Below are positions 7,451 through 26,895 of a stretch of 64,000 nt of DNA, one piece after another (position 1 is the first letter of the stretch; each line of letters starts with the position of its first letter). The stretch is from an uncultured Erysipelotrichaceae bacterium (lineage in GTDB: Bacteria > Bacillota_I > Bacilli_A > RF39 > UBA660). A program made the position numbers and the translations under genes. The notes below the pieces were generated by a model. The model saw only the letters and a program-made list of their open reading frames with translations. It had not been told where the DNA came from and ran no database searches. Location: positions 9,191 to 73,190 of the forward strand of contig CACWWC010000008.1 in assembly GCA_902764545.1 (NCBI GenBank), read 5' to 3'.

Positions 7451-7469
7451 GAGGAACATTATAATTTAG

Positions 7470-10305: not shown

Positions 10306-13300
10306 ATGATGAGTAAAAATATTAAAAGGTTAACGATTTTTAATATAATTATTATAAGCATAATCAGTGTATTAGGCATTGTTATGCTTTTTAACCCATC
10401 ATATGCAAGAAACCTAGCCAATGAATATTATAGCACTTGGGATGGAGAAACAGTATCCACGACTTTATCAGGCTCTGGAACATCATCAGACCCATACGTT
10501 ATAAGTAATGGAGCAGATTTAGCCTTTTTCTATAAAAATTGTACAAATAGTAACTGGAACGATAGATATTACGTACTTGATAATGATATATACTTGAATG
10601 AAGGATATTTCGACTATATTGATGATGGCAATTTTAAGTATCATCTAAATAATAAAACTTACTATATCGCAAAAGACAAATATTACACAACAAAAGATGA
10701 TCTAAATAGTGAAACAAATGGTCAAAACATACACGTATTAAAAAATAGAAAATATGACCCATTCTATGGGACATTTGATGGCAATGGACATGCCATAATA
10801 GGCATGTTTTTTAACGACTCTAATGCAGATAGCAATCATTTTATAAGTCATAATTATGGTGTAATTCAAAATGTTAAGTTTTTTAATTCAATAATTATAT
10901 CAAAGAAAAATAGTTCATTGATAGGTGATATCTATGAATCAGGCACAACAAAAAATATTGTTTTTAATGGAACAATAAAAAATTATGCTGTAGGTAATGC
11001 AGGCATTATAGGTACTGTTGTTAATAAAGGCAATATTTCAAATATTGCTATGCACGGTAGAGTTGAAGGATATGGAAATATAGGAGGCATAGTTGGAAGA
11101 TATGTAACACCAAATTCAGGTTTAAGTAGTATATTAAATATCAGCAATAGTTATAACACTGCAGAAGTTATATCTGATAATGTAGCTGGCGGAATTATTG
11201 GAAAAAGTGAAAATACAAACTATTTAAATTTAACAAACGTCTTTAATACGGGAAACATTTTGGGAGAATACTCTGGAGGAGTTTTAGGATATCTAACATC
11301 AACATCAGTTGCTAATAGCATAAATTTTACAAACTCATTTTCAAGTAATGCAGATAATTTTATTGGATATATTCCAATTAGTGCTACAATACATGCAAGC
11401 AATAATTACTACACTAATGCGAATACTAAAGCCGTAGGAAATTATAGTACAGCAGTTTCAGGAATTGAATATAAACACTACATGAATTTATTTGCTACAA
11501 ATAACCTTTCATCCATGGGATATTTACAATATGATGAAAATCAAGTATCTAGTGGTTATATATGGAAATATAGACTTTATCAATCTCCATATTTGTATTT
11601 TGATGATGTAACAAAACCAGATGTCACAATAAACTACAATACCAATACATGGACACCAAGCAATAACAGTAGGACAATCTCAATAATTACTGCTAACTCC
11701 ACAGGAAATATAAGTGTATCAGTAAGTGACGATAGTGATATAGCAAAGATAGAATATTACATCAAAAATAAATATGATACTACAACAGAAAATATAGAAA
11801 ACCTTGATTTAAAGTTGTACACAGATGATACGACATTTACCGTAGAACCCAATACTTGTCAAACAATATATATAAAGGCAACAGATATTTATGGAAACAG
11901 TAGTTACGCCTTTTCTGATATGATATTTTATGATGCTTATGTACTAGATTTTAGTGAAGGAATAAATCACAATTCGTTAGGAATAAAAAGTAATACAATT
12001 TTTAAATATTTTACAAAAAATTCAGAAATAAACATAAGAGGAAAACACTCAGTTAATACTGACTCCTATATTTATAACGCAGACAATAAAGAATATATGT
12101 ATTTTTATTATATTCCACCAACTGGAACAGTAATGACATTATATGATTATACCAAGAACAAAATATATAAATATACTGTCAACAATACCAGTGACTTTTC
12201 ATACAATTATTCAGGAGTTTCACTTTATAGGTTAGATTTATCAGTATTTAAGTCAATTTATGATAGCAGTATCGCTTATGATAATACTGTATATGGGCAT
12301 TACGACTCAGTAAAAAAGAAAATAGATGAAGATTTTGAAATATCATTTGACTTTTCAAAATGCTCCTTCCCAAATTCATATGTATTAAAAGGATATATAA
12401 GATCGTATTCAACAACAAATCAAACTGTAGTAATGTCATATAGAAGTTCAATTTTTGAATTTGAATTAATGACTGATCAAGAGGCAGAATATTCATTAGA
12501 AATAATTCCTGATTCTACAAATGCGATTGATAATATATCAAATACAATTAGCATGGACTTAGTACTAACAAAACAGTTAATGAATACCCAAAATTCAACA
12601 TATACACATGAAGATACTTTTATATATGATCCTTCATTTTTTAATGCAGACTATACTATTGTTCTTAAAGTAGTTGATGAAAATAATAACGTTATAAAAA
12701 GTACTTCCGGTAATAATATTTCTTACCAAATAAAAAATGGTGCATCATTCAATAATAAAACTGATAACAATGCTTATATGAAAGTAAACATTCCAGCTCG
12801 GAGCTATAGCTGGTATAATATGTTTGGATACCGAGGCATGGTATCATTTAAAATAAAAGTTCTAAACAATAGATATATTGATATTGCAAATGGAACATAT
12901 CAACTAAATGTATATCTTCAAGACTTAAGTGGTACAACTATAGCAACAGCACAAACTCCTTTGACAGTAAGTAAAGCCATACAAATAAATAATGCAAGTT
13001 ATAACTTCGCTATTACAGATAAAAATGATAGAATAATAGAGGCAGGAGAAACAGCAGCGGGCAATAACTATATGGGATTTAACTATACACTTTCACTTAA
13101 TAATCCAACCAGTTCCTCCTTACTTGTTAAAACATATAAAATAGAAGAAGTAGATGATGAAGTAGTAAAAACCGAGGTTAATCCATCAACAATTTTTAAT
13201 TCTACATATAATTTTCCGGTTTTAGATAACTACTATTTACTTCAAATAAATCATCACAATCTTGATAATGTTTTAAATATTAAAAGTGACACTCCTAGCG

Positions 13301-13380
13301 GAGTTTATGACGTTGAGATATTTTTTCAGAATAATGGAAAAATACAAACAAGTGAAAACTTTAACATTTTAGTCAAATAA
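10306..13380 (+). CDS. 1024-aa secreted protein with SipW-type-like signal and GLUG-motif (beta-helix-like) repeat region
   Basis: N-terminal TM helix ending PSYARN. Repeats NAGIIGTVVN / NIGGIVGRY / NVAGGIIGKS / SGGVLGYL (about 10.98-11.34 kb) resemble GLUG motifs. Long Ig-like/beta-rich remainder. Confidence 0.6.
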   Translation: MMSKNIKRLTIFNIIIISIISVLGIVMLFNPSYARNLANEYYSTWDGETVSTTLSGSGTSSDPYVISNGADLAFFYKNCTNSNWNDRYYVLDNDIYLNEGYFDYIDDGNFKYHLNNKTYYIAKDKYYTTKDDLNSETNGQNIHVLKNRKYDPFYGTFDGNGHAIIGMFFNDSNADSNHFISHNYGVIQNVKFFNSIIISKKNSSLIGDIYESGTTKNIVFNGTIKNYAVGNAGIIGTVVNKGNISNIAMHGRVEGYGNIGGIVGRYVTPNSGLSSILNISNSYNTAEVISDNVAGGIIGKSENTNYLNLTNVFNTGNILGEYSGGVLGYLTSTSVANSINFTNSFSSNADNFIGYIPISATIHASNNYYTNANTKAVGNYSTAVSGIEYKHYMNLFATNNLSSMGYLQYDENQVSSGYIWKYRLYQSPYLYFDDVTKPDVTINYNTNTWTPSNNSRTISIITANSTGNISVSVSDDSDIAKIEYYIKNKYDTTTENIENLDLKLYTDDTTFTVEPNTCQTIYIKATDIYGNSSYAFSDMIFYDAYVLDFSEGINHNSLGIKSNTIFKYFTKNSEINIRGKHSVNTDSYIYNADNKEYMYFYYIPPTGTVMTLYDYTKNKIYKYTVNNTSDFSYNYSGVSLYRLDLSVFKSIYDSSIAYDNTVYGHYDSVKKKIDEDFEISFDFSKCSFPNSYVLKGYIRSYSTTNQTVVMSYRSSIFEFELMTDQEAEYSLEIIPDSTNAIDNISNTISMDLVLTKQLMNTQNSTYTHEDTFIYDPSFFNADYTIVLKVVDENNNVIKSTSGNNISYQIKNGASFNNKTDNNAYMKVNIPARSYSWYNMFGYRGMVSFKIKVLNNRYIDIANGTYQLNVYLQDLSGTTIATAQTPLTVSKAIQINNASYNFAITDKNDRIIEAGETAAGNNYMGFNYTLSLNNPTSSSLLVKTYKIEEVDDEVVKTEVNPSTIFNSTYNFPVLDNYYLLQINHHNLDNVLNIKSDTPSGVYDVEIFFQNNGKIQTSENFNILVK

Positions 13381-13394
13381 TGAAAGGAGTAAAA

Positions 13395-13946
13395 ATGAAA
13401 AACAAAATAAAATATGCACTACTCCTATTAATTGTTTTACTTTTATTTTATACTATTAAAGGAAGTTATGCCTTATACAACAGCATAGCTAATGGCAAAA
13501 TAAAAGACGAAAATAATTCTCAAGAAATAATAGCAAAATTTATTGTAAATAATCAATTGTCGGATAGCATTAATTTCGAAATAAGCGATTTATCTCCGGG
13601 AGACACAAAAACTTTTAATTTCAGTGTATCAAATACCATTAATACCACTCATTCAGATGTTTCTATAAAATATAAAATCAATATACACTCATATAGTTTG
13701 CCACTAACATATATTTTGACTCAAGACCAAAATACTAACAATTTACTAACATGTTCTGGAGAAGTAGATATTTCATGTGAAAGTAGTGAGCTAATCATGA
13801 ATTATAATGACAATACAATTAAAAACTTCACACTAAAAGTTACACTGCCAGAAGCAAATACAAATGAAGAGGCATTTGACTACACATATGCAAATAATAT
13901 TGATATTGTAACATTAACAATTGATTCATGGCAGATTATTAGCTAA
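13395..13946 (+). CDS. Small TasA/camelysin-size secreted protein with SipW-type-like signal (protein D)
   Basis: ATG 13395 lies 5 nt after AAGGAG. The track ORF starts at 13380, overlapping the upstream stop. TM helix ends GSYALYN. ISDLSPGDTKTFNFSVSN and C-terminal TLTIDSWQ resemble TasA strands (LKPGD...N, ...FEATQ; recalled from memory). Confidence 0.6.
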   Translation: MKNKIKYALLLLIVLLLFYTIKGSYALYNSIANGKIKDENNSQEIIAKFIVNNQLSDSINFEISDLSPGDTKTFNFSVSNTINTTHSDVSIKYKINIHSYSLPLTYILTQDQNTNNLLTCSGEVDISCESSELIMNYNDNTIKNFTLKVTLPEANTNEEAFDYTYANNIDIVTLTIDSWQIIS

Positions 13947-13960
13947 AGGATGTGATAGAA

Positions 13961-15019
13961 ATGAAGAAAGGAAGCTATATTATATTTATATCTATTTTTT
14001 TCCTGATAATTATAGCGATAATTTTAACAATCTTTAAATATAGTCAGGCAAAATACCGGAAGTCTGATACATGGGACTATAACTATGATACATCAGGATT
14101 TTATATATCAAGTAACTTTCTACAAGATACCAATTATGACGTATATAACAGTAATAATAATTTGGATTATACATATATTACATATCTAAACTTTGATACT
14201 AATGCATTAAGCTTTAAAGTCTATAATTATCAATCTGATACCCAAATAAGCAAAGAAAATATTAAATATAATATCTCATGCGAAATACAAGGTGAAGAAG
14301 CTCATACATGTTTTATAGATGGTTCACCAAGTAGTAAAGGAAATATAAGTCTAAATAAAGCATACACTTGTTCCGTAAGTGGATTAACTGAAGAAGAATG
14401 TAAAAACAATCAAAATGCAACCCTTACATACAATAAACAAATTAATACTCATGATATCTCAATACAAAGAGCTTCATCATCAAATTCAGATACATTAATC
14501 GTAAATATAATCTTAACAGTCACATATCCATACAAAAAAGTTTTAAAAGGAAATTTAATGTTAAAATACAATGAGGATGAGCAGGGAATAAACATTGCAA
14601 ATATATCTAGCAGTGACTATCAATGCGAATACATAGTTACAAATTATGGTGGAGCGACTTACCCCAGTGTTACTCTAAAAGGAATAGAAAGTAGCGTACT
14701 TTTTCAATCAAATAACTTGACTGAAGTAACAAGATATATGAACAAATATGATAGGTGGAAAGTAAAAGTTAATAAAAGCAAATATATCCCATGTTCAAAA
14801 GCTATATACCAATATACAGGAACAAACTACCTTTTTGGTGATGCCAACAACGATGGCAGAACCGATACATTGGATGTAAACAGAATAGATAAACATATTT
14901 CAGGTAATGAGCTTTTAACTGGAGTAGGCTTTATAAATGCAGATCTTAATAATGATGGAGCAGTAAATGATTACGATAAATTATTACTTCAAAGATATAT
15001 ATCTAACCCAACTATGTAA
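13961..15019 (+). CDS. Secreted protein with C-terminal type-I dockerin module (protein E)
   Basis: ATG 13961 lies 10 nt after AAAGGA (track GTG 13952). N-terminal TM helix ending YSQAKY. C-terminus (14837-15016) has two Ca-binding loops, GDANNDGRTDTLDVNRI and ADLNNDGAVNDYDKLLL. Confidence 0.65.
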   Translation: MKKGSYIIFISIFFLIIIAIILTIFKYSQAKYRKSDTWDYNYDTSGFYISSNFLQDTNYDVYNSNNNLDYTYITYLNFDTNALSFKVYNYQSDTQISKENIKYNISCEIQGEEAHTCFIDGSPSSKGNISLNKAYTCSVSGLTEEECKNNQNATLTYNKQINTHDISIQRASSSNSDTLIVNIILTVTYPYKKVLKGNLMLKYNEDEQGINIANISSSDYQCEYIVTNYGGATYPSVTLKGIESSVLFQSNNLTEVTRYMNKYDRWKVKVNKSKYIPCSKAIYQYTGTNYLFGDANNDGRTDTLDVNRIDKHISGNELLTGVGFINADLNNDGAVNDYDKLLLQRYISNPTM

Positions 15020-15026
15020 ACTATAA

Positions 15027-15076
15027 AAAATGTATCGGAAGAAATTATACAATATATTCTCGATACATTTTTATTT
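15027..15076 (+). terminator. Rho-independent terminator
   Basis: AAAATGTATCG / CGATACATTTT stem around a long loop, followed by TTTTATTTT. Confidence 0.65.
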
Positions 15077-15134
15077 TATACCAAATTACATATTTTGATA
15101 TATGAGTACATTAATAAACCATCTATTATAATTA

Positions 15135-15163
15135 TTGAATTGGTCTTTTTTTTGATGTATAAT
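15135..15163 (+). promoter_or_regulatory. sigma-A type promoter
   Basis: TTGAAT (15135-15140), 17-nt spacer ending in TG, TATAAT (15158-15163). Confidence 0.6.
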
Positions 15164-15180
15164 TATGATAGGGTGATAAG

Positions 15181-15813
15181 ATGGAGAGGATAGAGTTAAA
15201 AATATTTGCATTAATAATATCTATATTTGTCTTATTGTCAAATATCAACTCAAGTTACGCAAGATATTTATCAGAATCAACAGGAACGGCAGACATTGAT
15301 TTTAGTACCTGGAAAGTACTTGTAAATAACACTGATATCACAAACAGTACAGTTACAAATATGATTATAACACCTACTATTATTTCAAATAGTAATGTAA
15401 GAAACGGTACACTAGCACCAGGATCTATAGGATATTTTGATCTTATGATTGACTGTTCTAATGTTGAAACTTCATTTAACTATCAGATTAGCATTAATAA
15501 AACCGGCGAAATTTCAAATTTAAAGGTCATTGGTTATTCTCCAAATAATACATCTACAACGCCATCAGTATCATATAAAAATACAACTAATCATACATAC
15601 CCAGATACAAACACAATATCAGTTAATAAAACATTGCCAACAAGTGGAACATTTTCCACATTTTATGTAAGAATCTTTTTTCAATGGATTGATAATTACA
15701 ATAATTTAAATACTGATATAAATGACACATCAATTGGTTTGAAATCTGCAAATAATCAAACAATTAACTATAATATAAGTGTGACACTTCAATTCAGACA
15801 AATTTCTTCATAG
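15181..15813 (+). CDS. Small TasA/camelysin-size secreted protein with SipW-type-like signal (protein F)
   Basis: TM helix ending SSYARYLSE, DIDFSTWKVLVNN first strand, LAPGSIGYFDLMIDCSN, C-terminal ISVTLQFRQ (TasA-like terminal strand). Confidence 0.6.
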   Translation: MERIELKIFALIISIFVLLSNINSSYARYLSESTGTADIDFSTWKVLVNNTDITNSTVTNMIITPTIISNSNVRNGTLAPGSIGYFDLMIDCSNVETSFNYQISINKTGEISNLKVIGYSPNNTSTTPSVSYKNTTNHTYPDTNTISVNKTLPTSGTFSTFYVRIFFQWIDNYNNLNTDINDTSIGLKSANNQTINYNISVTLQFRQISS

Positions 15814-15907
15814 TTGGTAAAAATGAATAATACGTTTGTTGTATTTTGACATGAATATGTGATATAATTTTTATGATTGGATTAAGGTAAGATAGGAAGG
15901 GATTAAT

Positions 15908-17863
15908 ATGAAAAAAATACTATTTTCAAAACAAAGTATTATTATATCTATGACTATTTACCTAATGATGATATGTTTTTTTTCAATACTAGTTATTAGC
16001 AAAAATAACTATGGTGTAACACAATTTGGAAATAGATTTTTTATAAGTGCATCATCTAATAATAAGCTATATGGATATAAAGAAGGAGATCTAATTGAAA
16101 TAGAAAAAAAGAACATTAGTGAACTGCATGATGGTGATAATGTTTATATCTATAAAATGCAAGAAAATGAAAAAAAAATAGATATAATCAATTCCCAGGT
16201 ACAACAAGTACATGCTGAATATCCAAACAGTTATGTAATATTAAAAAATGACAACTACCGCTGGGAAGAAAAGTATATTGTTGGGATATCAAGAAATATA
16301 TACCCTAAAATGGGATACGTAATGACGGCTCTAACATCAAGTTGGGTATTTTTTATATTATTTTTTATCCCTGCAGTAATCATTTTTATATATGAAATCT
16401 ACACTCTATTTAATGAATTAAAAAAACTTAAAAAAAACAATATTAGTATAGAAAAGGAAGATGAAAAAAAAGAAATCAATCAACAAGAAAACAAAATACT
16501 AAATAATAACACTCAACCTATTAACCAACGGTTTAATATTGAGTCTCAAAAGTTAATAAGTGAAAAAGAAAACAATATTGGTGATAATATCATGGACGAA
16601 CCAATTATTATTATCCCCAATATAAAAGAAAAAGGTGACTATATAACAGATGAAAACATTGAAGATGAGCTAAGTACTATTACAATTAGTGATGAATTAA
16701 ATAAAGAAAATGAAAGTGAACCAGAAGAAAAAACTAATAATAATAAAACTGATAATGAAGATAGTCAAGAAGTGAATTCAGATGAATCTAGTAATAACAT
16801 AAAAACAGAAAATGAGCCAATAGTTATAGGAAAAGGTATTAAAAATTTTATTTTAAAAATACTAGAATTAAAAAAGTATGAAATATTTGATATTTTATCA
16901 ATTATTAATAATGCGAAAAATCAAACGTTTCCACAATCGGTATTAAAAAATATTATTTCAACATATGTAATGGATAAATATATTCAGCCAATTGATTATA
17001 ATGAAGAAGATTTTAAAAATAAAAATAAAATTCTTATAGAAAAAATAGAAAAATATGCATCTAAAAAAAGAAATCTCGATTCAACTCAAAAAAAAGAGCT
17101 CACAGAAACGTTATTATTCTATAATAAACTAAAAGAGGATTATAGTAACTTAAATAAAGAAATTACATCATTTATTACATTTGAATCAGAAGATGATAAA
17201 AAAATAATTGTAGACTGTATAACAGAAAAAGGTAAAAGCTACATAAAATTAAGAAAAGCGTTTACAGAAAGAATTTCAGCATCAAAAATGTTTCAACTTA
17301 TCGTAAGTGACACGATAATAAAAAAAGTCTATAATACACAGTTAAAGTCAAATATTAAATTTAGTAAAATATTTAGTGAATATGTTATTGATAAATCGTA
17401 TAGCCAATCAGTTGTACTAGAAAATTTAGAAGAAGTTCTTTTGAAATTGGTAGGATCTATGCTTATAAAGGAATTATTTAATGGTGATTATGAAAAACAG
17501 TACATTATTCACTTTAATGAAACACTATATAAGAAGGAAAGAAAAATTAACAATTTTATAGATAATTTCAATGATCCTTTTTCTCAGAAAAAAATATTAA
17601 TATTAATTAATGCTGATAATATAAAAAAGAATAAAAATATTTTGGATAAATTAAAAAATCAAGGATTTAATTTTGTCATTCAGCTACCAAAGAAGGATCT
17701 TATGAATGTTGAATTTGACAGAAAAATTCTAAACATAGCAGAATACATAATAATTATTGGTAATTTAACCGAAGGAGAAAAAAAGACATTAATACCCGTA
17801 AGTATGATTCCAAAGGTATATTGTATTAATGAGGCCATTGACAGTGAGGTGATTAAAGCATGA
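15908..17863 (+). CDS. Bitopic membrane protein: SipW-like ectodomain lacking the canonical catalytic motifs, plus ~470-aa cytoplasmic domain (protein G)
   Basis: TM1, then FGNRFF...EGDLIEIEKK...GDNVYIY...NDNYRWEEKYIVG aligns by eye to the SipW-like J/M proteins but lacks the GSM and THR contexts. TM2, acidic linker, then a large domain of unknown function. Stop overlaps the next start (ATGA). Confidence 0.6.
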   Translation: MKKILFSKQSIIISMTIYLMMICFFSILVISKNNYGVTQFGNRFFISASSNNKLYGYKEGDLIEIEKKNISELHDGDNVYIYKMQENEKKIDIINSQVQQVHAEYPNSYVILKNDNYRWEEKYIVGISRNIYPKMGYVMTALTSSWVFFILFFIPAVIIFIYEIYTLFNELKKLKKNNISIEKEDEKKEINQQENKILNNNTQPINQRFNIESQKLISEKENNIGDNIMDEPIIIIPNIKEKGDYITDENIEDELSTITISDELNKENESEPEEKTNNNKTDNEDSQEVNSDESSNNIKTENEPIVIGKGIKNFILKILELKKYEIFDILSIINNAKNQTFPQSVLKNIISTYVMDKYIQPIDYNEEDFKNKNKILIEKIEKYASKKRNLDSTQKKELTETLLFYNKLKEDYSNLNKEITSFITFESEDDKKIIVDCITEKGKSYIKLRKAFTERISASKMFQLIVSDTIIKKVYNTQLKSNIKFSKIFSEYVIDKSYSQSVVLENLEEVLLKLVGSMLIKELFNGDYEKQYIIHFNETLYKKERKINNFIDNFNDPFSQKKILILINADNIKKNKNILDKLKNQGFNFVIQLPKKDLMNVEFDRKILNIAEYIIIIGNLTEGEKKTLIPVSMIPKVYCINEAIDSEVIKA

Positions 17864-19419
17864 CAATTTTTAGGTTTCTATATGAAATATTATCTGTACT
17901 CTTTCAAGGTGTAATATACATATTTAAAGGATTATTTAATGGAATAAAAACAATTTTTTCTTTTGGAGACTATAAGAAAATCATTGATTTCTATTCAAAA
18001 GAATTAAATATAAGCGAATGGATACTAGTAACAATCTTAATTGTGGTATTAATTTTGATAGTAGGTTTAATTGCTTATATATTATATTACTTATTAAGAA
18101 AGTATATAATATTGAAAAAGAAATTGGTAAACCAAGAGTCACTGCTTGAAGAAATAAATACATTAAATGATCAGGTTGAAGGACTAGTTAAAGAAAATGA
18201 AAAAATAGCAGAAATATATTCTGGAATTACACCAAATTCTAATAATGGAAAGATAGGAGGCGCTAATGTTAATCCTATAAATCCAAATGAGCCACAAGTT
18301 GAAGGAGAAGAAGTAGAACAAGAAGAAGAGGTTGCAGATGAAAACATAAGATTCCCACAATTGTATAGAATTGATAAATTAAATAAAAAGACAAAAATAG
18401 TAAACTACAACAATACACAAACGTTGCCAGAATTGGTAGACGACTTTAGATGCTTTTCTGCAAGTCAATTACATCTATACTATAATGTAGAAATGATTCG
18501 TGTATTCTTCGGTGGACTAGCATGTGGTAAAATGTTAATATTCCAAGGTATTTCTGGTACAGGAAAAACATCCCTTGCATATGCATGGAGCAAATTTAAT
18601 AAATCGGACCCATGTATAGCATCAGTGCAACCTTCATGGCGTGATAGAACCGATTTCTTTGGCTACATGAACGAATTTACGAAAAGATTTAATGAAACAG
18701 GGGCTTTAGTTGAATTATATAGTGCATTATACGATGATAGATGTCACACAATTGTACTAGATGAAATGAATCTGGCACGTGTTGAGTACTATTTCGCAGA
18801 AGTACTATCAATACTTGAAATGCCAAATAGAGCAGAATGGATTGTTAGCCTTGTAACTAACACTGTTGAAAATGATCCAGTTAAACTAAATAATGGTAAA
18901 ATACGATTAAATGGAAATGTATGGTACATAGGAACAATCAATAACGATGATTCAACATTTGCAGTTACTGATAAAGTTTATGATAGAGCAATGCCTATTG
19001 ATATTAATACCAAAATCGATCCATTTGATTGTAGAAACCAAGAGGCCCTAGATTTAAATTCGGTTTATCTTGAATCATTATTTCACAAGGCATGTGAAGA
19101 TTTTCCAATATCTGAAAAAAGTCTTAAAAGCTTAAGTACAGTCGATAGTTTTATGATAACCAACTTTAAAATATCTTTTGGTAATCGTATCATGAAACAA
19201 TTAAACATATTTGTACCGGTATATGTTGCATGTGGAGGAGATGAAGTTGGAGGAATTGACTATTTCGTTGCAAAAAAAATATTACGTAAACTGGAACAAC
19301 AGAATATAGCATATATTCGTGACGCAATTGATCCATTCATAGAAGAATTGAATAGATTATTTGGAAAAGACAAAATGAAAGAATGTATTGAATACGTTAG
19401 TATGTTAAAGAAAGGTTAA
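17860..19419 (+). CDS. Membrane-anchored McrB-like (AAA_5/dynein-related) AAA+ ATPase (protein H)
   Basis: Hydrophobic N-terminus plus TM helix WILVTILIVVLILIVGLIAYILYYLL, coiled coil, acidic linker. Walker A GISGTGKTS (18547-18573). Walker B and downstream IVLDEMNLARVEYYFAEVLSILE (from 18751), a signature I recall from McrB-family ATPases. Confidence 0.7.
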   Translation: MTIFRFLYEILSVLFQGVIYIFKGLFNGIKTIFSFGDYKKIIDFYSKELNISEWILVTILIVVLILIVGLIAYILYYLLRKYIILKKKLVNQESLLEEINTLNDQVEGLVKENEKIAEIYSGITPNSNNGKIGGANVNPINPNEPQVEGEEVEQEEEVADENIRFPQLYRIDKLNKKTKIVNYNNTQTLPELVDDFRCFSASQLHLYYNVEMIRVFFGGLACGKMLIFQGISGTGKTSLAYAWSKFNKSDPCIASVQPSWRDRTDFFGYMNEFTKRFNETGALVELYSALYDDRCHTIVLDEMNLARVEYYFAEVLSILEMPNRAEWIVSLVTNTVENDPVKLNNGKIRLNGNVWYIGTINNDDSTFAVTDKVYDRAMPIDINTKIDPFDCRNQEALDLNSVYLESLFHKACEDFPISEKSLKSLSTVDSFMITNFKISFGNRIMKQLNIFVPVYVACGGDEVGGIDYFVAKKILRKLEQQNIAYIRDAIDPFIEELNRLFGKDKMKECIEYVSMLKKG

Positions 19420-19433
19420 AATAGGTAAATAAT

Positions 19434-20672
19434 ATGGAAAACTATTCATTAAAATATGAAAATCAATCTGATTTGTTTAATGATAAGTTCTTTAAAAATA
19501 TAAATCAAAGAGAACTTCTATCATCAGATTATACAGGATTAATAGTTAGCTTTGATTGGTTTGATTTAATCTTTGGAACTATACCATATGTAAACAATAT
19601 ATTTAATGATTTAAAATCATTCCTAAAGGAAGAAGAAGAAATACTTAAAATAGAAAAGGTTCGTAAAGTTGGACCGCCAACGTTCAAACATCTAGCTAAA
19701 CATACAAACTTTATTCAAGAATATGATGAAGAAAAAAATAAAATAACACCATCTAAACTTCTAAACACGTATAAGGAAGATACATTCAATACCTATGAAA
19801 ATCGTTTTATTTGTACTCTTGTTGATGAGCTGGCAATATTTTTGGAAGATATAAAGAATCAATTAACAGCACATGATACACATAATGAAGATTCATTTAC
19901 GTTTAATAGTAAAACCAAAGCAGATGGTGAGGAGATTTCATTCAATTTTATGCTAGATGCAAAAACAGACAGGTCGTCAGGCCTTGAAGAATTTGAGGCA
20001 AAATCAGAAATTGTAATGAATAATGTTAAGTCTTGGAGAGACAGTTTACTATATAAAACTCTAAAAAAAGAAAAAGCACCTGCAGTATCAGATCCAATTA
20101 AAAGAACTAATGTAATTTTAAAAAATCCAAACTTTCAAATGGCAGCTAATTTATGGGACTTTATTCACAACTTTAGTATAGATGCACATACCATAGAAAA
20201 CAATAGAGATGTATACAATCAATTACCAACAGTTTTCAATGATAAAGTTAATAATACTTTTTTATGTTTTTACTACATTATGAAATATACATGTGCAAAG
20301 AATAATTATCAAAAAGATATATATAACAAAGAATTAAATAAACTATTTTTGAAAGATATAAAAGAGAATATAAGATCACTTGCTAATGGAGATGATGCGT
20401 TAACAAAAGAAGATCTTGTAAATTTAGTAACATCAGAATATGATATCGTTAAAAAAGAAAAAGTAGTAGATTATTCAATGGTTGCAAATAAAATTAACAG
20501 TAGCTCAAAGAAATTTATGGATAAAATGGATTCAAGTTTCTTCCAAATAGGTGGAGATGGAGCAACACTTAATATGACACTCGACGAAGAAGAAGATAAT
20601 AAAGAAGAGAAAATCATAGTTGATGATATTGATAAAACATCAAGCAACTCAGGAGATGAAGAAAATGATTAA
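19434..20672 (+). CDS. Cytoplasmic partner protein, possibly DUF2357/McrC-like (protein I)
   Basis: No TM helix. NTYENRFICTLVDEL resembles the conserved core of DUF2357 McrC-like partners (memory-based). ADGEEISFNFMLDAK (LDAK at 19953-19964) could be a D...D-x-K nuclease remnant. Acidic tail. 14 nt after H, and overlaps J by 8 nt. Confidence 0.45.
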   Translation: MENYSLKYENQSDLFNDKFFKNINQRELLSSDYTGLIVSFDWFDLIFGTIPYVNNIFNDLKSFLKEEEEILKIEKVRKVGPPTFKHLAKHTNFIQEYDEEKNKITPSKLLNTYKEDTFNTYENRFICTLVDELAIFLEDIKNQLTAHDTHNEDSFTFNSKTKADGEEISFNFMLDAKTDRSSGLEEFEAKSEIVMNNVKSWRDSLLYKTLKKEKAPAVSDPIKRTNVILKNPNFQMAANLWDFIHNFSIDAHTIENNRDVYNQLPTVFNDKVNNTFLCFYYIMKYTCAKNNYQKDIYNKELNKLFLKDIKENIRSLANGDDALTKEDLVNLVTSEYDIVKKEKVVDYSMVANKINSSSKKFMDKMDSSFFQIGGDGATLNMTLDEEEDNKEEKIIVDDIDKTSSNSGDEEND

Positions 20673-21444
20673 AAATATTTTAAAAATAATAATGAAAATA
20701 TTAAAAATAGCATTAATTATAATAATTGTTTTATTCGCATCATTTGTATTACTACAACGTTTTTCCAACAATAACACATCCATATTTGGATATAGAATGT
20801 TTGCAGTTGTAACAGGTTCAATGGAACCAGTATATAGTGTTGGCGATGTTATACTATGTAAGGAAGTTGATACTAATAAATTAAAAGTTGGAGATGATGT
20901 TACATATTTAGGTAAAGAAGGCACTTTTAAAGATAAAGTCATTACACATAGATTAAAAAACATCACAGAAAAAGATGGAAAAAAGATATTTTACACACAG
21001 GGAGTTGCAACTAACAATATCGATCCACCTATAGAAGCAAGTCAGATATATGGTAAGGTATCAAGAAAATTATTAATTTTATCAGCATTTCACAGTTATT
21101 CTAGTACTAGCATTGGTTTTTTCCTATGTGTAATAATACCTATAATGTTATTAGTTGGAACCGAAGTAGTACAAACGATGCTTGAAAAACATGAAGAACA
21201 GCATGAAAAACATAATGAAATACAACAAAACAGCCAACAAAACAATTATACAACAGAGCAATTAAAACAAGAATTAGAATCGCTACAACAAATGGTAGAT
21301 GTTCAAAATGAACAATATGAAGCGAGGATAGCAAATAATGCACAAATGCAACCTCAAACTGTAGGAGTAAATAATATGAATGTGCAAGCACAGCCTCAAG
21401 CAGTAGGAGTAAATAGCACAGCCTCAAGCAGTAGGAGTAAATAA
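20665..21444 (+). CDS. SipW-like (ER/archaeal-type, S26B) signal peptidase I with frameshift-truncated Q/P-rich repeat tail (protein J)
   Basis: ATG 20665 lies 9 nt after AGGAG (track start 20620 sits inside the upstream gene). TM helix, VVTGSMEPVYSVGD (Ser box), ITHRL (His box), TQGVATNNID, second TM helix. Tail of 14-aa QPQxxGVNN repeats ends prematurely at a 28-bp duplication. Confidence 0.75.
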   Translation: MIKNILKIIMKILKIALIIIIVLFASFVLLQRFSNNNTSIFGYRMFAVVTGSMEPVYSVGDVILCKEVDTNKLKVGDDVTYLGKEGTFKDKVITHRLKNITEKDGKKIFYTQGVATNNIDPPIEASQIYGKVSRKLLILSAFHSYSSTSIGFFLCVIIPIMLLVGTEVVQTMLEKHEEQHEKHNEIQQNSQQNNYTTEQLKQELESLQQMVDVQNEQYEARIANNAQMQPQTVGVNNMNVQAQPQAVGVNSTASSSRSK

Positions 21445-21619
21445 TATAAGTGCACAAGTGCAACCTCAAACTGTAGGAGTAAATGGTATAAATGCACAAA
21501 TGCAACCTCAAACTGTAGGAGTATATAATATAAATGCACAGGTGCAACCCCAAGCAGTAGGAGTAAATAATATAAGTGCACAAGAGCAACCCCAAGCAGA
21601 AATAGACAGTAGTAAATAA
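21340..21619 (+). repeat. 42-bp (14-codon) tandem coding repeat array, about 6 units, interrupted by a 28-bp duplication
   Basis: Units such as GCACAAATGCAACCTCAAACTGTAGGAGTAAATAATATGAAT. After 21416 the array continues in the +1 frame to a TAA at 21617-21619. Confidence 0.9.
21388..21443 (+). repeat. Perfect 28-bp tandem duplication causing a frameshift
   Basis: GCACAGCCTCAAGCAGTAGGAGTAAATA occurs at 21388-21415 and again at 21416-21443. 28 is not a multiple of 3, and the stop appears at 21442-21444. Confidence 0.9.
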
Positions 21620-21676
21620 AATAGAGATAATCATTTACAGGGATTATAAACTTTGGTGGTAAAAGGAAGTGATAGT

Positions 21677-23002
21677 ATGAAACTGACTGAAAGAATGAAG
21701 TCTAAGTTAAGAAAAGTCAACTTTACATCAGTTGCATTTTTTGCTGTTTCCGTAATTTCTATCACTTTCGCATGGTTAGCATACAGTAATACTATTGCAA
21801 CCAATTTGGATGTTGATATTAAAAGATGGGATATCAATATAACAACTGGAAACACTGAAATAACCAATGAGTATGATATTAATGTTGACTCATTTTATCC
21901 AGGAATGGATGATTATAGTGACTCATTTACAATAAGAAATAACGGTGATTTAGCAGCCAAGATAGATTATAATATTTCATATTTCAGATTATTTGATCAA
22001 GAAATACCAACAAATAATTTAACATTTTATGAATTGCAAAGAGACTACCCATTTAAAATATCACTAGATTATGATACAAGATATTTAGGAATTAATGATA
22101 CAGCAACATTTAGCATTTCATGTGAATGGCCATTGGACTCCGGTGATGATGCAGCAGATACTTTATATGGAAATATGGCATCAGAGTTTTATGCTCAAGA
22201 ACAACAGATAAAAGCAAATAACCCATCATATGAAATAAGAAAAGGCCTAGAATTGAAAATCGAAATTGTAGTAAGTCAATATATTGATGAGACAAACTCA
22301 TTTGCGACTGACTCTTGGGACACTATTCAACTGGCAGTAGAAAAAGGAGATACAAGCAAATATAGTGTTGGAGCCACAAAAAATGTAAGAGTGGGAAACA
22401 AAAACCTTAAAGTAAAAATTGTAAATAAATCAGCACCAACATCATGTAATGGGGATTCATTTTCACAAACAGCATGTGGCTTTGTTTTAGAATTTGAAAA
22501 TGTTATTGAAGAAAAAAAGATGAATTCTTCAAATACAACTAACGGAGGATGGCCAAATAGTGAATTATATGAGTATTTGCACGGTGACTTTTTCTCAACC
22601 AAATTACCATATGAACTGAGAAAAGTAGTAGCAACAACACGTGTTGTTTCTGGGCATAACTCAAATGAAACAACAAATTATGTAACTTATGATAAATTAT
22701 ATTTGTTTTCCAAAAAAGAATATTATGGAGTAAGTGCACAAGATACCGCAGCAAACTCCACTAGGCAGATTGATTGGTATGTTGGTATGTCATCTACACC
22801 AATATATAATAGTGGAAGCCTTGTTGGACATGCCTACTTAAAAATGAAAAAGCTCGATTCATTAAACAACCCAAAAACATATTGGTTTCGTTCGGTAAAT
22901 GGTACACAATTGTTTGATGCGGTATATAGTAGTTCAATTTATTCTCCAAGAGCGGCAAATGAACCAAATGTTTGGTTTGCTCCTGCTTTTAGAATCACAT
23001 AA
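21677..23002 (+). CDS. Secreted fusion: TasA-like N-terminal domain with SipW-type signal plus DUF6273-like C-terminal domain (protein K)
   Basis: ATG 21677 after AAAGGAAGTGA. TM helix ending ITFAWLAYS. FYPGMDDYSDSFTIRNNGDLAAKIDY (TasA-like strand). The C-terminal half from about 22310 (GGWPNSELYEYLHGDFFSTKLPYELRKVV) resembles the W..S.lR.wLN-type DUF6273 domain. Confidence 0.6.
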   Translation: MKLTERMKSKLRKVNFTSVAFFAVSVISITFAWLAYSNTIATNLDVDIKRWDINITTGNTEITNEYDINVDSFYPGMDDYSDSFTIRNNGDLAAKIDYNISYFRLFDQEIPTNNLTFYELQRDYPFKISLDYDTRYLGINDTATFSISCEWPLDSGDDAADTLYGNMASEFYAQEQQIKANNPSYEIRKGLELKIEIVVSQYIDETNSFATDSWDTIQLAVEKGDTSKYSVGATKNVRVGNKNLKVKIVNKSAPTSCNGDSFSQTACGFVLEFENVIEEKKMNSSNTTNGGWPNSELYEYLHGDFFSTKLPYELRKVVATTRVVSGHNSNETTNYVTYDKLYLFSKKEYYGVSAQDTAANSTRQIDWYVGMSSTPIYNSGSLVGHAYLKMKKLDSLNNPKTYWFRSVNGTQLFDAVYSSSIYSPRAANEPNVWFAPAFRIT

Positions 23003-23100: not shown

Positions 23101-23130
23101 TTTACAATTTGATTTCGAGTGTGCTATAAT
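23101..23130 (+). promoter_or_regulatory. sigma-A type promoter
   Basis: TTTACA (23101-23106), 18-nt spacer, TATAAT (23125-23130). It covers the track ATG at 23129, which supports the downstream start at 23162. Confidence 0.55.
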
Positions 23131-23161
23131 GATAATTGATAAAAAGGATAGAGGTATAACT

Positions 23162-24196
23162 ATGAAGAAGGTATTACGAATCATTCGAAATATTATTTTT
23201 GGCGTTATTTTTGTTGTGTATCTCTCAATAATCATTTGCGTAAGTACTTTGGTTTTAAATCGTAATGATTATGGATATACAGAGTTTGGAAATAAAGCAT
23301 TAATAGATATTAAAGAAAATACAGGAAATTATTTAAAAGGACAACTAGTAATAGTTGAAAAAAAGATTATTGATAACTTGAAAGCGGGCGATGAAGTCTT
23401 TGTATATGAGACAAACCAACAAGAAAAAACAGTAAAAGTGGTTTCTTCAACTATAAAAGAAATTAATAAGGAAGAAACTACCCCATATATAACATTAGAT
23501 GTAGATAATACAGCCTGGGGACAGGATTATATTGCTGGACAAAGCACAAAAATGTATGAATCTATAGGGGGCATACTAACATTTGTTGAGTCTAAATGGA
23601 TATTCTTTGTAATATTTATTATTCCTTGCTTTTTTATCTTATTATATGAGATTTATTCTGTAATTATTGTCATAAAATTCGATGGTGATGAAGCAATACT
23701 AGAAAATCCTAATGTTATCAGTGGTGATCAAAAAGATAAGGTGGATGATATTTCTGTATTGATGAGTGAAATAACTAATTTGAAATCTCAGCTAAATCAA
23801 AATGCCCAGCCTATTATGAATCAAAACTTAACTCAGCAATCAATGCAACCACAAACTATAGGAATTAATAGTGCGAATGCACAAGTACAACCACAAGCAG
23901 CAGGAGTAAATAATATAAATGCACAGGTGCAACCACAAGCAGCAGGAGTAAATAATATAAATGCACAGGTGCAACCCCAAGCAGCAGGAGTGAATAATAT
24001 AAATGCACAAGCGCAGCCCCAAGTTGGAGGAGTAAATAATATAAATGCACAAATGCAGCCCCAAGTTGGAGGAGTAGATAATATAAATGCACAGGTGCAA
24101 ACATCACAGAATACAAATATTGCTAATTCAAATTCAGAACAGCCACAAATTATTCAGACATCAGCCCAAACACTTGATTCACAAAATAATCAATAG
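23162..24196 (+). CDS. Bitopic membrane protein: SipW-like ectodomain lacking catalytic Ser and His, plus Q/P-rich 14-aa repeat tail (protein L)
   Basis: ATG 23162 after AAGGATAGAGG. FGNKALIDIKENTGNYLKGQLVIVEKK...AGDEVFVY...VDNTAWGQDYIAG aligns to the SipW fold, but GSM and THR are absent. Second TM helix. Tail AQVQPQAAGVNNIN x ~6. Confidence 0.65.
   Translation: MKKVLRIIRNIIFGVIFVVYLSIIICVSTLVLNRNDYGYTEFGNKALIDIKENTGNYLKGQLVIVEKKIIDNLKAGDEVFVYETNQQEKTVKVVSSTIKEINKEETTPYITLDVDNTAWGQDYIAGQSTKMYESIGGILTFVESKWIFFVIFIIPCFFILLYEIYSVIIVIKFDGDEAILENPNVISGDQKDKVDDISVLMSEITNLKSQLNQNAQPIMNQNLTQQSMQPQTIGINSANAQVQPQAAGVNNINAQVQPQAAGVNNINAQVQPQAAGVNNINAQAQPQVGGVNNINAQMQPQVGGVDNINAQVQTSQNTNIANSNSEQPQIIQTSAQTLDSQNNQ
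23837..24100 (+). repeat. 42-bp tandem coding repeat array (~6.3 units), homologous to the array at 21340-21619
   Basis: Units at 23879-23920, 23921-23962, 23963-24004, 24005-24046 and 24047-24088, e.g. GCACAGGTGCAACCACAAGCAGCAGGAGTAAATAATATAAAT. Confidence 0.9.
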
Positions 24197-24248
24197 AATA
24201 ATCAATTTAGCTGGTAAATAATACTATAAATAATAAGAAGGTGGTTTG

Positions 24249-24959
24249 ATGGCAAAGAAAATAGTTAATCTGATATTGAACATTTCAATTGTTTGCGCTT
24301 CAATAATTTTATTTGTTACCATCTTTTTAGATATTCAAACGACAGTATTAAAAAAAACATATAAATCATTTTTTGGATATTCTCTTTTTGAAATAAAAAC
24401 AGGAAGCATGAGCAAAACGATTAAAATAGGAGACTGGATATTAGTAAAAAATACCAAAGATGTTGACCTAAATGATATCATAACATATGAACAAAATGGT
24501 AATTTTATAACACATAGAGTTATACAAAAATATCAAGGAAACATTACTACGAAGGGGGATTCCAATAATACTATAGATAAACCTATAACTAATACGCAGG
24601 TTGTTGGCAAAGTAATCAAGGTATTACCAAAATTTGGTATAATAAAAAGTGTACTTTTAAATAGTGAAGTATTGATTCCATTTATTATTACAATATTTAT
24701 TATTTGTTTAATAATTGATGATAAAAATAATAAAAATGAATCATATATAAATAGATTTAAATCTTTATTTAAAAAAAGAGATAAAAATATAAATAATAGA
24801 ATTAAGGACATACCAATTCCTCAGAAAAATGATGAATCAATGACAACTATTTTAAGTAAAGTAGAAATTGATAATAATAATGAGGTTTATAGCAGATTGA
24901 AGGAAACAAAAAATGAAGAAGAGGATGATGATATTCCAAAAATAATCAAAATCATATGA
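24249..24959 (+). CDS. SipW-like (ER/archaeal-type, S26B) signal peptidase I, canonical motifs (protein M)
   Basis: ATG 24249 after GAAGGTGG (track TTG 24246). TM helix, IKTGSMSKTIKIGD (Ser box), ITHRVI (His box), TTKGDSNNTIDKP (GDxN..D box), C-terminal TM helix and K/N/E-rich tail. Confidence 0.8.
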   Translation: MAKKIVNLILNISIVCASIILFVTIFLDIQTTVLKKTYKSFFGYSLFEIKTGSMSKTIKIGDWILVKNTKDVDLNDIITYEQNGNFITHRVIQKYQGNITTKGDSNNTIDKPITNTQVVGKVIKVLPKFGIIKSVLLNSEVLIPFIITIFIICLIIDDKNNKNESYINRFKSLFKKRDKNINNRIKDIPIPQKNDESMTTILSKVEIDNNNEVYSRLKETKNEEEDDDIPKIIKII

Positions 24960-24978: not shown

Positions 24979-26175
24979 ATGAATAAAAAAGGAAAAAAAA
25001 GAATGCGAAGATTAATGATTTTATTCATAATGATTCTACTCACTTTATCTATATTGTTAGTTGGAACATATGCATGGTTTATTGGATTAAGAACAGTAGA
25101 TGTTTCAGAATTTAGCGTTACCATAACAGGAGTTGATGGGTTAGAAATATCTCTAGATGGTGAAAATTGGAAGATAGAAGGTGAGCCTTTACATATCAAT
25201 TCAAGTACAATCATTAATACAACATCCACAACGGATGATCATGCATATTCAGGGCATAAAAATATATGGCCAAGTGATGGGTTAGTACCGTTATCAACCA
25301 ATGGATTAATGGATGCGACAAACAGTAGATTAATACTATATGAAAAGACCGGATTGCCACCATCACCAGGAGGCTATGGAATAATATCAAACAGACTAGA
25401 TAACACTGGAACAGACGAAGCAGACGGATATGTCGCATTTGACTTGTTTCTTAAAAATGGAAAAGGTTCATCATACAATGAAACGTATGATCCAAATGCA
25501 GATGAAGATATTTATTTGACAAGCAACTCATATGCTAACAGTACACCAAGTGGTAGTAGTGAAGAAGCTTATGGAATTGCTAACTCAATAAGGATAGGTT
25601 TTTTCCAGATAGGACGAATAAAATCAAGCGGATATAGTTCATCAATATTAACTGGAATAACATGTAGTGGAGGGGAACATATTACAACAACTTGTACCAA
25701 TAGTACAAATTTAGACGAAAGAAGGGCCAAAACATGGAACATATGGGAGCCAAATGATTCAACACACGAAAGTAATTTAGTTCAACTTTTCAATAGAATA
25801 TGTAAGAAAAGAAGTGCAACGGGAGCCTACCTAGAAACCTCTTGTGATACTCTGACAGCTACAAGTAGTAATTTAACCTATGCAATAAATCAACCAATTA
25901 CTTCAACAGATCAAGTAGATGTTTATGATGGAAATAATGGGTACACTTCAGCAAAACTCACAGAAATGAATACATATAAAACAAATGACGCTGCAAATTA
26001 TGCAAGTGATAAAAAACAACTATTAAAAATTGCTGGAAATAGTGTAACAAAAATTAGAGTATACATATGGTTAGAAGGGCAAGACGTTGATAACTATGAT
26101 TTAATTGTCAATGATGCAAATGTGGCAATTAAATTTGGCTTTACAAAAGATAAATATGGTATTTCAACTACGTAA
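24979..26175 (+). CDS. Expanded TasA/camelysin-like secreted protein with SipW-type signal peptide (paralog A4)
   Basis: GTYAWFIGLRTVDVSEFSV, YVAFDLFLKNGKG, NSIRIGF, IWEPNDSTH, RVYIWLEGQDVDNYDL, KFGFTKDKYG. Confidence 0.65.
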   Translation: MNKKGKKRMRRLMILFIMILLTLSILLVGTYAWFIGLRTVDVSEFSVTITGVDGLEISLDGENWKIEGEPLHINSSTIINTTSTTDDHAYSGHKNIWPSDGLVPLSTNGLMDATNSRLILYEKTGLPPSPGGYGIISNRLDNTGTDEADGYVAFDLFLKNGKGSSYNETYDPNADEDIYLTSNSYANSTPSGSSEEAYGIANSIRIGFFQIGRIKSSGYSSSILTGITCSGGEHITTTCTNSTNLDERRAKTWNIWEPNDSTHESNLVQLFNRICKKRSATGAYLETSCDTLTATSSNLTYAINQPITSTDQVDVYDGNNGYTSAKLTEMNTYKTNDAANYASDKKQLLKIAGNSVTKIRVYIWLEGQDVDNYDLIVNDANVAIKFGFTKDKYGISTT

Positions 26176-26191
26176 ATAGGATGTGTATAAT

Positions 26192-26890
26192 ATGAATGGT
26201 GATATAAAAACGACTGCGGCGAAGTTACGGAAAAGGAAAAGAAACTTTAAAATAGCCTGTGTCTTACTAGTTATACTTATTATATTAATAGTTGCAGTAT
26301 ATGCAGCAGTTAGTTTTATATATAATGGATACTATTTTTCTATAACATTAGACAAAAATTTATATCTTAAGAATAAAGTTGTTATATATGATGATCCAAA
26401 ATACAAGGTATATAGAAGTGTTATGCAGGTTGAGTCATTAGACTTTTTTGATAATATATCAGAAAAGTGGCTGCCTGATAGTTTAGATAATGCAGGAGGT
26501 AGTCATAATGGGGAAAGTTATCTTGCATACACGTTCTTTATTGAGAATATGGGAGATGATGTTGTTGACTATTATGATGAATTAATTATCGATGATGTTG
26601 TAAAAAATGTAGACGAAGCGATACGTTTTAAGGTATACTATGATGGGAAGGATAAATTATATGCAAAAAAAAGCATTGATGGTACCCCAGAAAAAGGAAC
26701 AATTGCCTTTAAAGATGAAAATACTGTTTTAAGGCAGAAAGTAACAAATTTTGCTCCAGGTGAAATACATAGATATACAGTAGTAATGTGGGTTGAAGGA
26801 AATGATCTTGAATGTACTAATAATATTTTAGGTGGGGAATTAAAAGTACATTACGATTTTAAATCATATCATAAAGAAGGTAGGAAGTGA
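26192..26890 (+). CDS. Small membrane-anchored or secreted TasA-like accessory protein (protein O)
   Basis: ATG 26192 lies 10 nt after TAGGA (track GTG 26183). TM helix with VYAAVSF. YTFFIENMGDDVVDYY and RYTVVMWVEGNDLEC share the paralog strands. The stop overlaps the track GTG of the next gene. Confidence 0.55.
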   Translation: MNGDIKTTAAKLRKRKRNFKIACVLLVILIILIVAVYAAVSFIYNGYYFSITLDKNLYLKNKVVIYDDPKYKVYRSVMQVESLDFFDNISEKWLPDSLDNAGGSHNGESYLAYTFFIENMGDDVVDYYDELIIDDVVKNVDEAIRFKVYYDGKDKLYAKKSIDGTPEKGTIAFKDENTVLRQKVTNFAPGEIHRYTVVMWVEGNDLECTNNILGGELKVHYDFKSYHKEGRK

Positions 26891-26895
26891 TTAAT

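Follow-up and report, generated by a model that had tools for sequence, protein, structure and literature searches.

A large clade in the NxD branch of the McrB GTPases was named CoCoPALM by Bell et al. (eLife 2024, PMC11090510, section 7), who give it one paragraph and defer its description to a later paper. According to this paragraph, the systems comprise a GTPase fused to an FtsB-like transmembrane (TM) and coiled-coil domain, an adjacent McrC homologue, usually with a coiled coil, and an association with proteins of the signal peptidase family. NxD is a variant of the NxxD signature and is usually followed by D or E. We found no later paper using the name in the literature searched, and it is absent from the supplementary tables of Bell et al. 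that were examined. Here, we analyse a block of four open reading frames (ORFs), called G, H, I, and J, at positions 15908-21444 of a stretch of 64,000 nucleotides (the window) from an uncultured Erysipelotrichaceae bacterium (assembly GCA_902764545.1, contig CACWWC010000008.1, positions 9,191 to 73,190 of the forward strand). H is an McrB-like protein, I its McrC-like partner, J a signal peptidase of the SipW type, and G a peptidase-like membrane protein with a large cytoplasmic domain (G_C). Measured against the paragraph of Bell et al., the locus is a further member of the named, uncharacterised CoCoPALM class. It shares with it the NxD-branch McrB-like GTPase (here with an N-terminal TM and a heptad-like segment), the Bacillota host, the N-x-D signature with D or E as fourth residue (D in 79 and E in 4 of 84 loci), the adjacent McrC homologue (DUF2357), and the tight association with signal peptidases. 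An earlier note on this DNA knew of no precedent for such an arrangement; it had in fact already been named. Several features described below go unmentioned in that paragraph: the EAL-like G_C and the proteins in which it is joined to SipW, the pairing of live with dead peptidases, a partner without a nuclease motif, and the families of secreted cargo.

The four ORFs lie on the forward strand and are closely packed. G (15908-17863, 651 amino acids [aa]) and H (17860-19419, 519 aa) share an ATGA, in which the TGA of G (17861-17863) overlaps the ATG of H (17860-17862), with a GAGG about 10 nt upstream of the start of H. I (19434-20672, 412 aa) begins 14 nt after the end of H at 19419. J (20665-21444, 259 aa) overlaps the end of I by 8 nt, the ATG at 20665 preceding the stop codon of I (20670-20672), and is preceded by an AGGAG (20651-20655) with a 9-nt spacer. 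An alternative in-frame ATG at 20656 is a less likely start for J, because it directly abuts the AGGAG. A terminator scan found no terminator-like site within G-J. Hydropathy and the positive-inside rule predict that the peptidase-fold domains of G and J are outside the cell, and that the C-terminal 490 or so residues of G, the AAA+ part of H, the whole of I, and the tail of J are inside. The gene junctions and the topology thus agree with the earlier note, and so do its domain assignments (a peptidase-like G, an McrB-like AAA+ H, its partner I, and an active SipW J), with the qualification that the peptidase domain of G is catalytically dead. We consider it probable that G-H-I-J forms a CoCoPALM-type core, i.e., a membrane-tethered NTPase module derived from McrBC, without its DNA-binding and nuclease parts, and dedicated to SipW-type peptidases and their secreted substrates.

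With the help of an alignment of 30 sequences (A1), H can be divided into a conserved N-terminal stretch of 53 aa, a TM helix within residues 54-78, a heptad or coiled-coil segment (about residues 79-125), an acidic linker, the McrB-family AAA+ GTPase core (about residues 195-411), and a conserved C-terminal domain. Hydropathy shows a single strong TM at residues 54-72, followed by the basic stretch RKYIILKKK, and the conserved heptad-like segment comes after this basic patch. The core matches the Escherichia coli McrB structures 6ut6, 7vsr, and 6hz4 over residues 173-394 (phmmer against the PDB, E-values 4e-5 to 8e-5) and the NCBIfam McrB model PRK11331 (E 1.4e-6). The Walker A motif GISGTGKTS (residues 230-238; 18547-18573) is invariant in 84/84 loci, the Walker B motif LDEMN (residues 300-304; 18757-18771) is invariant in A1, and the McrB signature N-N-D-D (residues 361-364; 18940-18951) has its N-N-D in 83 of 84 loci. 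Because a gapless alignment of this signature to the NTAD of E. coli is also possible, its reading as a deletion rests on the D/E variability of the fourth residue. No DNA-binding domain was detected at the N-terminus in Pfam or NCBIfam; Pfam DUF6377 is matched there in 21 of the 30 members. Since the characterised members of the McrB family are GTPases, GTP is more likely than ATP as the nucleotide of H. Hence, of the earlier description of H as an AAA+ ATPase, the AAA+ part stands with the McrB-family match and the ATP part should probably give way to GTP.

The product of I is a soluble McrC-like protein without a TM helix (hydropathy). It matches the McrC N-terminal domain, Pfam DUF2357, at residues 53-150 (E 2.3e-13, 50.4 bits, cutoff 23.3). 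Among 75 homologues, YENR (residues 121-124) is invariant, F125 is present in 91%, and a second conserved block spans residues 221-241. The C-terminus is variable and acidic: none of its residues beyond 241 reaches 90% conservation in the 75 homologues, and K340 is the only one to do so in a 20-sequence alignment (A7). Pfam finds no nuclease domain in I, and the homologues have no conserved D...(D/E)xK motif. The protein therefore seems to have no PD-(D/E)xK catalytic motif, because nothing beyond residue 241 is sufficiently conserved.

The comparison with canonical McrBC (E. coli; 6ut6, 6hz4, 7vsr) shows what has been retained and what is missing. The core of H aligns over about 220 residues, including the Walker A and B motifs and the Asn and Asp of the signature, the McrC N-terminal domain is found in I, and the gene corresponding to B directly precedes that corresponding to C. 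In contrast, H has a TM and a putative coiled coil in place of the DNA-binding N-domain, I lacks the conserved PD-(D/E)xK residues, and the genetic context is made of secreted proteins and peptidases, not of restriction-modification genes. In sequence, the locus thus lacks what defines the canonical McrBC restriction enzyme, namely a DNA-binding domain and a nuclease motif.

J is a SipW (archaeal/ER-type) signal peptidase I, with TM helices at residues 12-30 and 150-168 and a match to TIGR02228 well above the cutoff (E 5.7e-25, 88 bits, cutoff 51.85). It aligns to human SEC11A/C around GSMEP and THR. The putative catalytic triad consists of Ser52 (20818-20820), His95 (20947-20949), and Asp120 (21022-21024); in 67 homologues encoded at the same position, His and Asp are present in all and Ser in 66. 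The J-type enzymes have a hydrophobic residue at the first Asp position and an invariant second Asp. Downstream lies a second enzyme, J2 (24246-24959, forward strand), which matches the same model (E 4e-17, 62 bits) and has Ser, His, and both Asp intact. Judged by these catalytic residues, J and J2 are both active-type SipW.

Other genomes provide an argument for a functional relation between the NTPase pair and the peptidases. We scanned one genome per GTDB species, took the best 80 loci with 10-kb flanks, added two further contigs from exact look-ups, and scored the families of the neighbouring genes with iterated local hidden Markov models (HMMs). A close homologue of H (45-58% identity) occurs in at least 587 GTDB species genomes, and full-length homologues with an identity of at least 55% number in the thousands in metagenome-assembled genomes (MAGs) labelled Bacilli, Mollicutes, or Tenericutes. 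I is directly downstream of H in 77/77 loci. A SipW with intact Ser and His follows I in 66 of 75, and an active SipW is found within 10 kb in 57 of 59. On average, a locus has 2.4 genes of the SipW fold, of which about 1.7 are intact and the remainder encode pseudo-peptidases. Two layouts recur. With Sip+ for an intact SipW, Sip0 for a pseudo-SipW, s, big, T, p449, and m235 for families of secreted or membrane proteins, and cyt537 for a conserved cytoplasmic protein of about 540 aa, they are cyt537 - T/big - s - s - Sip0 - [Sip+ - G_C] - H - I - Sip+ - p449 and ...Sip0 - s - Sip+ - s - s - G_C - H - I - Sip+ - p449 - m235 - T. Distant loci labelled Clostridia (L081-L083; Oscillospiraceae and Ruminococcaceae MAGs) have Sip+ - H - I - Sip+/T, without G_C, and their I is 709-821 aa long. 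The conserved part is the order inside the block, because the flanking housekeeping genes vary between genomes, e.g., the pcrA neighbour is only found here. H is by far the best conserved, with a median identity of 53%, compared with 42% for J, 30% for I, and 25-31% for the secreted neighbours. The earlier note had named a way in which its proposal could fail, namely that H and I occur elsewhere only in defence islands without sipW; we examined this, and the neighbours of the pair are genes of secreted proteins, not of defence. A dedicated link between the NTPase pair and the signal peptidases, as that note had suggested, is thus strongly supported by gene context, because H-I adjoins SipW genes, and not defence islands, in essentially every related locus. 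A separate observation concerns two loci (L078 and L080, with an H about 49-50% identical), in which H-I is directly followed by the gene of a surface protein of about 2760 aa. There, no gene of the SipW fold was found on the same strand within the flanks of about 10 kb, so the H-I pair can occur with a giant secreted protein alone.

G consists of three parts. Its N-terminal module (15908-16399) has TM1 at residues 11-29, an extracytoplasmic SipW-like domain at residues 30-145, and TM2 at residues 146-164. It matches the SipW model NF046067 with an E-value of 5e-6 and 26 bits, far under the cutoff of 190. In the alignment to the SipW HMM, N occupies the column of the catalytic Ser and S that of the His. 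The second such protein in the window, G2 (23129-24196, forward strand), has T and S in these columns. The N-terminal domain of G and G2 are thus pseudo-peptidases that have lost the catalytic Ser and His. A cytoplasmic linker of low complexity, rich in N, E, K, and D, follows (residues 165-302; 16400-16813) and is not conserved among homologues. It leads to G_C, the C-terminal 325-350 aa or so of the protein (residues 303-651; 16814-17863). G_C is directly upstream of H in 68 of 77 loci, either as a stand-alone protein (325-355 aa) or fused to a SipW of the J2 type. In 24 other loci with SipW-G_C fusions, Ser, His, and both Asp are intact in 24/24, and J2 matches the N-termini of these fused proteins at about 150 bits, which identifies it by sequence as the counterpart of the peptidase domain fused to G_C elsewhere. 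The fusions of G_C to an active SipW provide Rosetta-stone evidence for physical coupling. The window itself differs in its pairing. Elsewhere (loci L001, L003, L005, and others), the partner of G_C is an intact J2-type SipW, preceded by a separate gene for a dead SipW; here, the dead domain is fused to G_C and the intact J2 is encoded separately, at a distance of 6 kb in the downstream direction. Members of the family thus seem to have swapped domains.

The fold of G_C was modelled by structure prediction. An AlphaFold2 model built with a 65-sequence alignment (predicted local distance difference test [pLDDT] 84.4, predicted TM-score [pTM] 0.83) has a helical bundle at residues 12-155 of the domain and a seven-stranded beta/alpha unit at residues 160-349, the latter corresponding to a degenerate EAL-like beta/alpha barrel at about residues 462-651 of G. 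The top 43 Foldseek matches of this model in the PDB are all EAL domains (best E 3.8e-5, probability 1.00), including those of Bd1971, BifA, MucR, FimX, MorA, RocR, and YahA. An earlier model from seven sequences was poor (pLDDT 50.6); it gave the same EAL ranking and served as a lead only. Pfam has no match to G_C in 25 members, and a G_C profile has no match among the PDB sequences. We term the modelled fold degenerate EAL-like, because it is that of EAL domains without conserved catalytic residues or a match at the sequence level. The family is small: an exhaustive HMMER scan of 1.84 billion representatives retrieved only 203 relatives, all of which are proteins of about 320-370 aa or the C-terminal portion of proteins of 585-873 aa. 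Word-indexed searches with the cytoplasmic domain of G yielded few proteins (7 with an alignment as query and 4 with the single sequence) because the query is of low complexity. G_C is most likely an interaction module and may conceivably sense a nucleotide.

These elements suggest how the preferred reading, a membrane-tethered NTPase module dedicated to SipW-type peptidases, could work. H would form a membrane-tethered ring, as McrB does in E. coli, and I would plug and stimulate it, as McrC does. From the cytoplasmic side, G_C would dock this motor on the peptidases and pseudo-peptidases with their two TM helices. Repeated hydrolysis of GTP would gate or drive the steps in which the subunits of a fibre or pilus (T proteins and the small secreted proteins encoded nearby) are cleaved and released, and the pseudo-peptidases would hold the signal anchors of these subunits without cleaving them. 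Cleavage would free an N-terminal strand for polymerisation, as in TasA and BsaA fibres. We infer this coupling of NTP hydrolysis to the processing of signal peptides or the handling of fibres from the gene context; the earlier note had proposed that the arrangement would fit it.

Described systems offer partial analogies. As in the tapA-sipW-tasA operon of Bacillus subtilis and the sipW-bsaABC operon of Clostridium perfringens, a dedicated signal peptidase of the archaeal/ER type is encoded with secreted substrates. These operons differ in that they encode a single SipW and lack a cytoplasmic NTPase, pseudo-peptidases, and an EAL-like domain, and the T proteins have no sequence similarity to TasA, BsaA, or camelysin (CalY, Peptidase_M73). 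We take the cleavage-site region of the T proteins, ...TYA/WF, to resemble the ...TWA/AF of TasA. In C. perfringens, the secretion of the SipW-dependent, TasA-like BsaA oligomers depends in part on secretion ATPases, and SipW has been proposed to cleave after the addition of the subunit (PMC11580942). This is a useful parallel for the mechanism proposed here. The type IV pilus and the archaellum follow the same logic, with a dedicated prepilin-type peptidase, a cytoplasmic hexameric NTPase, and membrane-anchored subunits. Their components are unrelated: here, a Ser/His signal peptidase whose active site lies outside the cell takes the place of the aspartic prepilin peptidase, and an McrB-type NTPase that of PilB or FlaI. 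Taking the mechanism to its end, we raise the tentative possibility that monoderm bacteria have a class of machine for assembling surface fibres (pili) that has so far escaped notice, with this block as its engine. In such a machine, a membrane-tethered GTPase ring derived from McrBC, a dead EAL-fold adaptor, and peptidase and pseudo-peptidase subunits would let cytoplasmic hydrolysis drive or gate a cleavage-coupled polymerisation outside. If so, the mechanism would be distinct from those of sortase, type IV, and chaperone-usher pili, curli, and the passive assembly of TasA.

Several results weigh against these interpretations, in which contact between the proteins, NTP hydrolysis, and the fibre itself are all putative. 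The FtsB/FtsL-likeness of the N-terminus of H is weak, Pfam FtsL being matched in 6 of 30 members with a best E-value of 1.4e-3. The likeness of G_C to EAL domains is at the level of the fold only (TM-scores normalised by the target of 0.38-0.47), and hhalign gave no alignment of G_C with the EAL domains of PdeH, PdeK, and PdeL of E. coli. A profile of I searched against the PDB did not match the McrC structures by sequence. A profile search with the T family detected no similarity to TasA or to any PDB entry, and the neighbours do not pass the model of the SipW-cognate signal peptide, TIGR04088 (best T2, 9.7 bits, E 0.96, cutoff 19). Putative SipW-type signal peptides were assigned to them from the ...[ST]YAWF pattern and from the gene context. 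Finally, with a dead peptidase domain joined to G_C and a frameshift in the tail of J (see below), this copy of the locus may be partly degenerate.

The EAL-like fold of G_C also invites another explanation, inside-out signalling, in which G_C would be a receptor of a nucleotide (e.g., c-di-GMP) and H-I a GTP-dependent switch, not a motor, that toggles the extracytoplasmic peptidases. Catalytically dead EAL folds act as cytoplasmic interaction or receptor modules in LapD-LapG, FimX-PilZ-PilB, and YdiV. LapD controls an extracytoplasmic protease and FimX a pilus ATPase, and it is at this level that G_C is alike. FimX is among the best matches of the confident model and LapD among those of the low-confidence, seven-sequence one, and the layout of G, a TM protein with a protease-family domain outside and an EAL-like domain inside, recalls LapD. 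However, G_C differs from these proteins in having no EAL signature at the sequence level (Pfam, PDB, hhalign), no GGDEF, and no HAMP, and in its partners, an McrBC-like pair and SipW-fold proteins. About 70 homologues show no conservation of the residues that serve EAL domains in ligand binding, metal binding, or catalysis, nor of any set of acidic residues, and a semi-conserved Asp at position 292 of G_C is missing even from this G. We therefore regard signalling through a nucleotide-binding G_C as unlikely.

The McrBC ancestry of H-I suggests instead a defence or conflict system derived from type IV restriction, in which the pair would sense an invader and the membrane proteins would be the effectors, the SipW genes and secreted proteins being accessory or merely linked. 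The core of H, and only the core, matches the PADLOC candidate PDC-M26A (1e-30), and the related CoCoNuT systems of the NxD branch are predicted in Bell et al. (PMC11090510) to be defence systems. Yet H lacks a domain for binding DNA or RNA, a nuclease motif is missing from I, and PADLOC returned no relevant match for G, I, or J. Further, the block is near-universal, of fixed order, and under strong constraint in at least 587 species; its surroundings are always genes of structural secreted proteins and not variable defence islands, and its base composition is that of its flanks (about 28% G+C, uniform over the region). A defence role of some kind is thus improbable, and the specific case of H-I as an McrBC of a defence island was rejected on the context and the missing nuclease motif.

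We judge equally doubtful a role in membrane quality control, whereby the AAA+ ring would build no fibre and would extract or clear cleaved signal peptides or stalled precursors from the peptidases and pseudo-peptidases. A membrane-tethered ring beside several such paralogues, and many substrates with unusually long and highly basic signal anchors, would suit this role. However, rings of the McrB family are not known to thread polypeptides, and in the E. coli structures 6ut6 and 6hz4 the McrB pore is filled by McrC. Lastly, a remnant of McrBC could have come to lie beside an island of sipW and secreted-protein genes by chance or for historical reasons only. Nothing beyond the single window speaks for this, and the conserved gene order, the overlaps between ORFs, and the fused genes seen in dozens of divergent genomes refute it and leave it with a negligible likelihood.

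If the coupling between a cytoplasmic NTPase and SipW-type peptidases is real, the motor of a restriction enzyme has been repurposed for the biogenesis of the cell surface, and a cytoplasmic GTPase has come to control the processing by type I signal peptidases, which is normally independent of energy. Among uncultured gut and rumen Bacilli with small genomes, the system is widespread, as the species-level genomes counted above show, and it probably gives rise to major surface structures in bacteria that are common associates of hosts. The anatomy of the locus supplies concrete constructs: the EAL-like adaptor fused to SipW, the pairs of active and dead peptidases, the nuclease-less McrC partner, and the cargo families with ...TYAWF.

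The tails of J and G2 are repetitive. J ends in a cytoplasmic tail of Q/P-rich repeats of 42 nt (14 aa), which extends over 21352-21619 and includes two truncated units of 28 nt at 21387-21443. These two units put J out of frame, so that it stops at 21444. The out-of-frame remainder (21445-21619) encodes the same ...AQEQPQAEIDSSK end as the J of near-identical strains, whose lengths (266-350 aa) differ in repeat number only. The end of J at 21444 taken in the earlier note thus reflects frameshifted repeats, and the ancestral gene, as read from the strains, extends to 21619, its tail having been shortened here by the frameshift. G2 carries nearly the same repeat at 23876-24100 (NAQVQPQAVGVNNI-like units in translation), the consensus units of the two arrays being identical at about 40 of 42 nt. 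This suggests rapid variation in repeat length or gene conversion, or an assembly error in this contig. A 164-aa antisense ORF (21140-21634, reverse strand) was rejected as almost certainly not a gene, being the mirror image of the repeat array. At the other end of the block, the 94-nt gap upstream of G contains a possible extended -10 element (TGaTATAAT, 15860-15868). A TTGACA at 15846-15851 is only 11 nt from it, so the canonical spacing of a -35 element is not respected. The candidate is weak, because a consensus scan for promoters and terminators found neither kind of site to be commoner than in shuffled sequences.

The block is part of an island of about 24 kb that encodes proteins with SipW-like signal anchors, all on the forward strand. 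Upstream of G are three paralogous secreted proteins of the T family (4818-8501), the 537-aa cytoplasmic protein cyt537 (8678-10291), a 1024-aa surface protein (10306-13380), and three small secreted proteins (13380-15813). Downstream of J are p449 (21677-23002), a secreted DUF6273 protein with an N-terminal signal anchor (Pfam 9e-11), then G2, J2, the fourth T protein (T4, 24979-26175), the 235-aa membrane protein m235 (26183-26890), and the fifth T protein (T5, 26887-28296). A homologue of p449 is present in 46 of 48 full loci, downstream of the J-type SipW in most. The five paralogous T proteins (343-469 aa) have a highly basic signal anchor followed by ...TYAWF. Their invariant motifs are the AW closing the anchor, FD, IWEPN..H, and R.Y...EG.D.D; the last two appear among the conserved motifs as IWEPN..H and RVY.W.EGQD.D. 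They matched no family in Pfam, NCBIfam, or the PDB and form an uncharacterised family of putative fibre subunits. The protein cyt537 is soluble, apparently helical, and without a family match; of 48 complete related loci, 20 have it, mostly at the upstream border of the cluster, and it may be one more part of the system inside the cell. A type I dockerin domain (Pfam, 5.5e-10) closes one of the small secreted proteins (13952-15019) and hints at an attachment of the cohesin-dockerin type for products of the island. Just upstream of the island (1849-3760) is a protein with a thioester domain (TED), a SpaA fold, and an LPXTG-type anchor, overlapped by a sortase-like ORF. Because this sortase-type pilus or adhesin pair is separate from the island, two systems for surface fibres, unrelated to each other, seem to be encoded next to one another in this organism.

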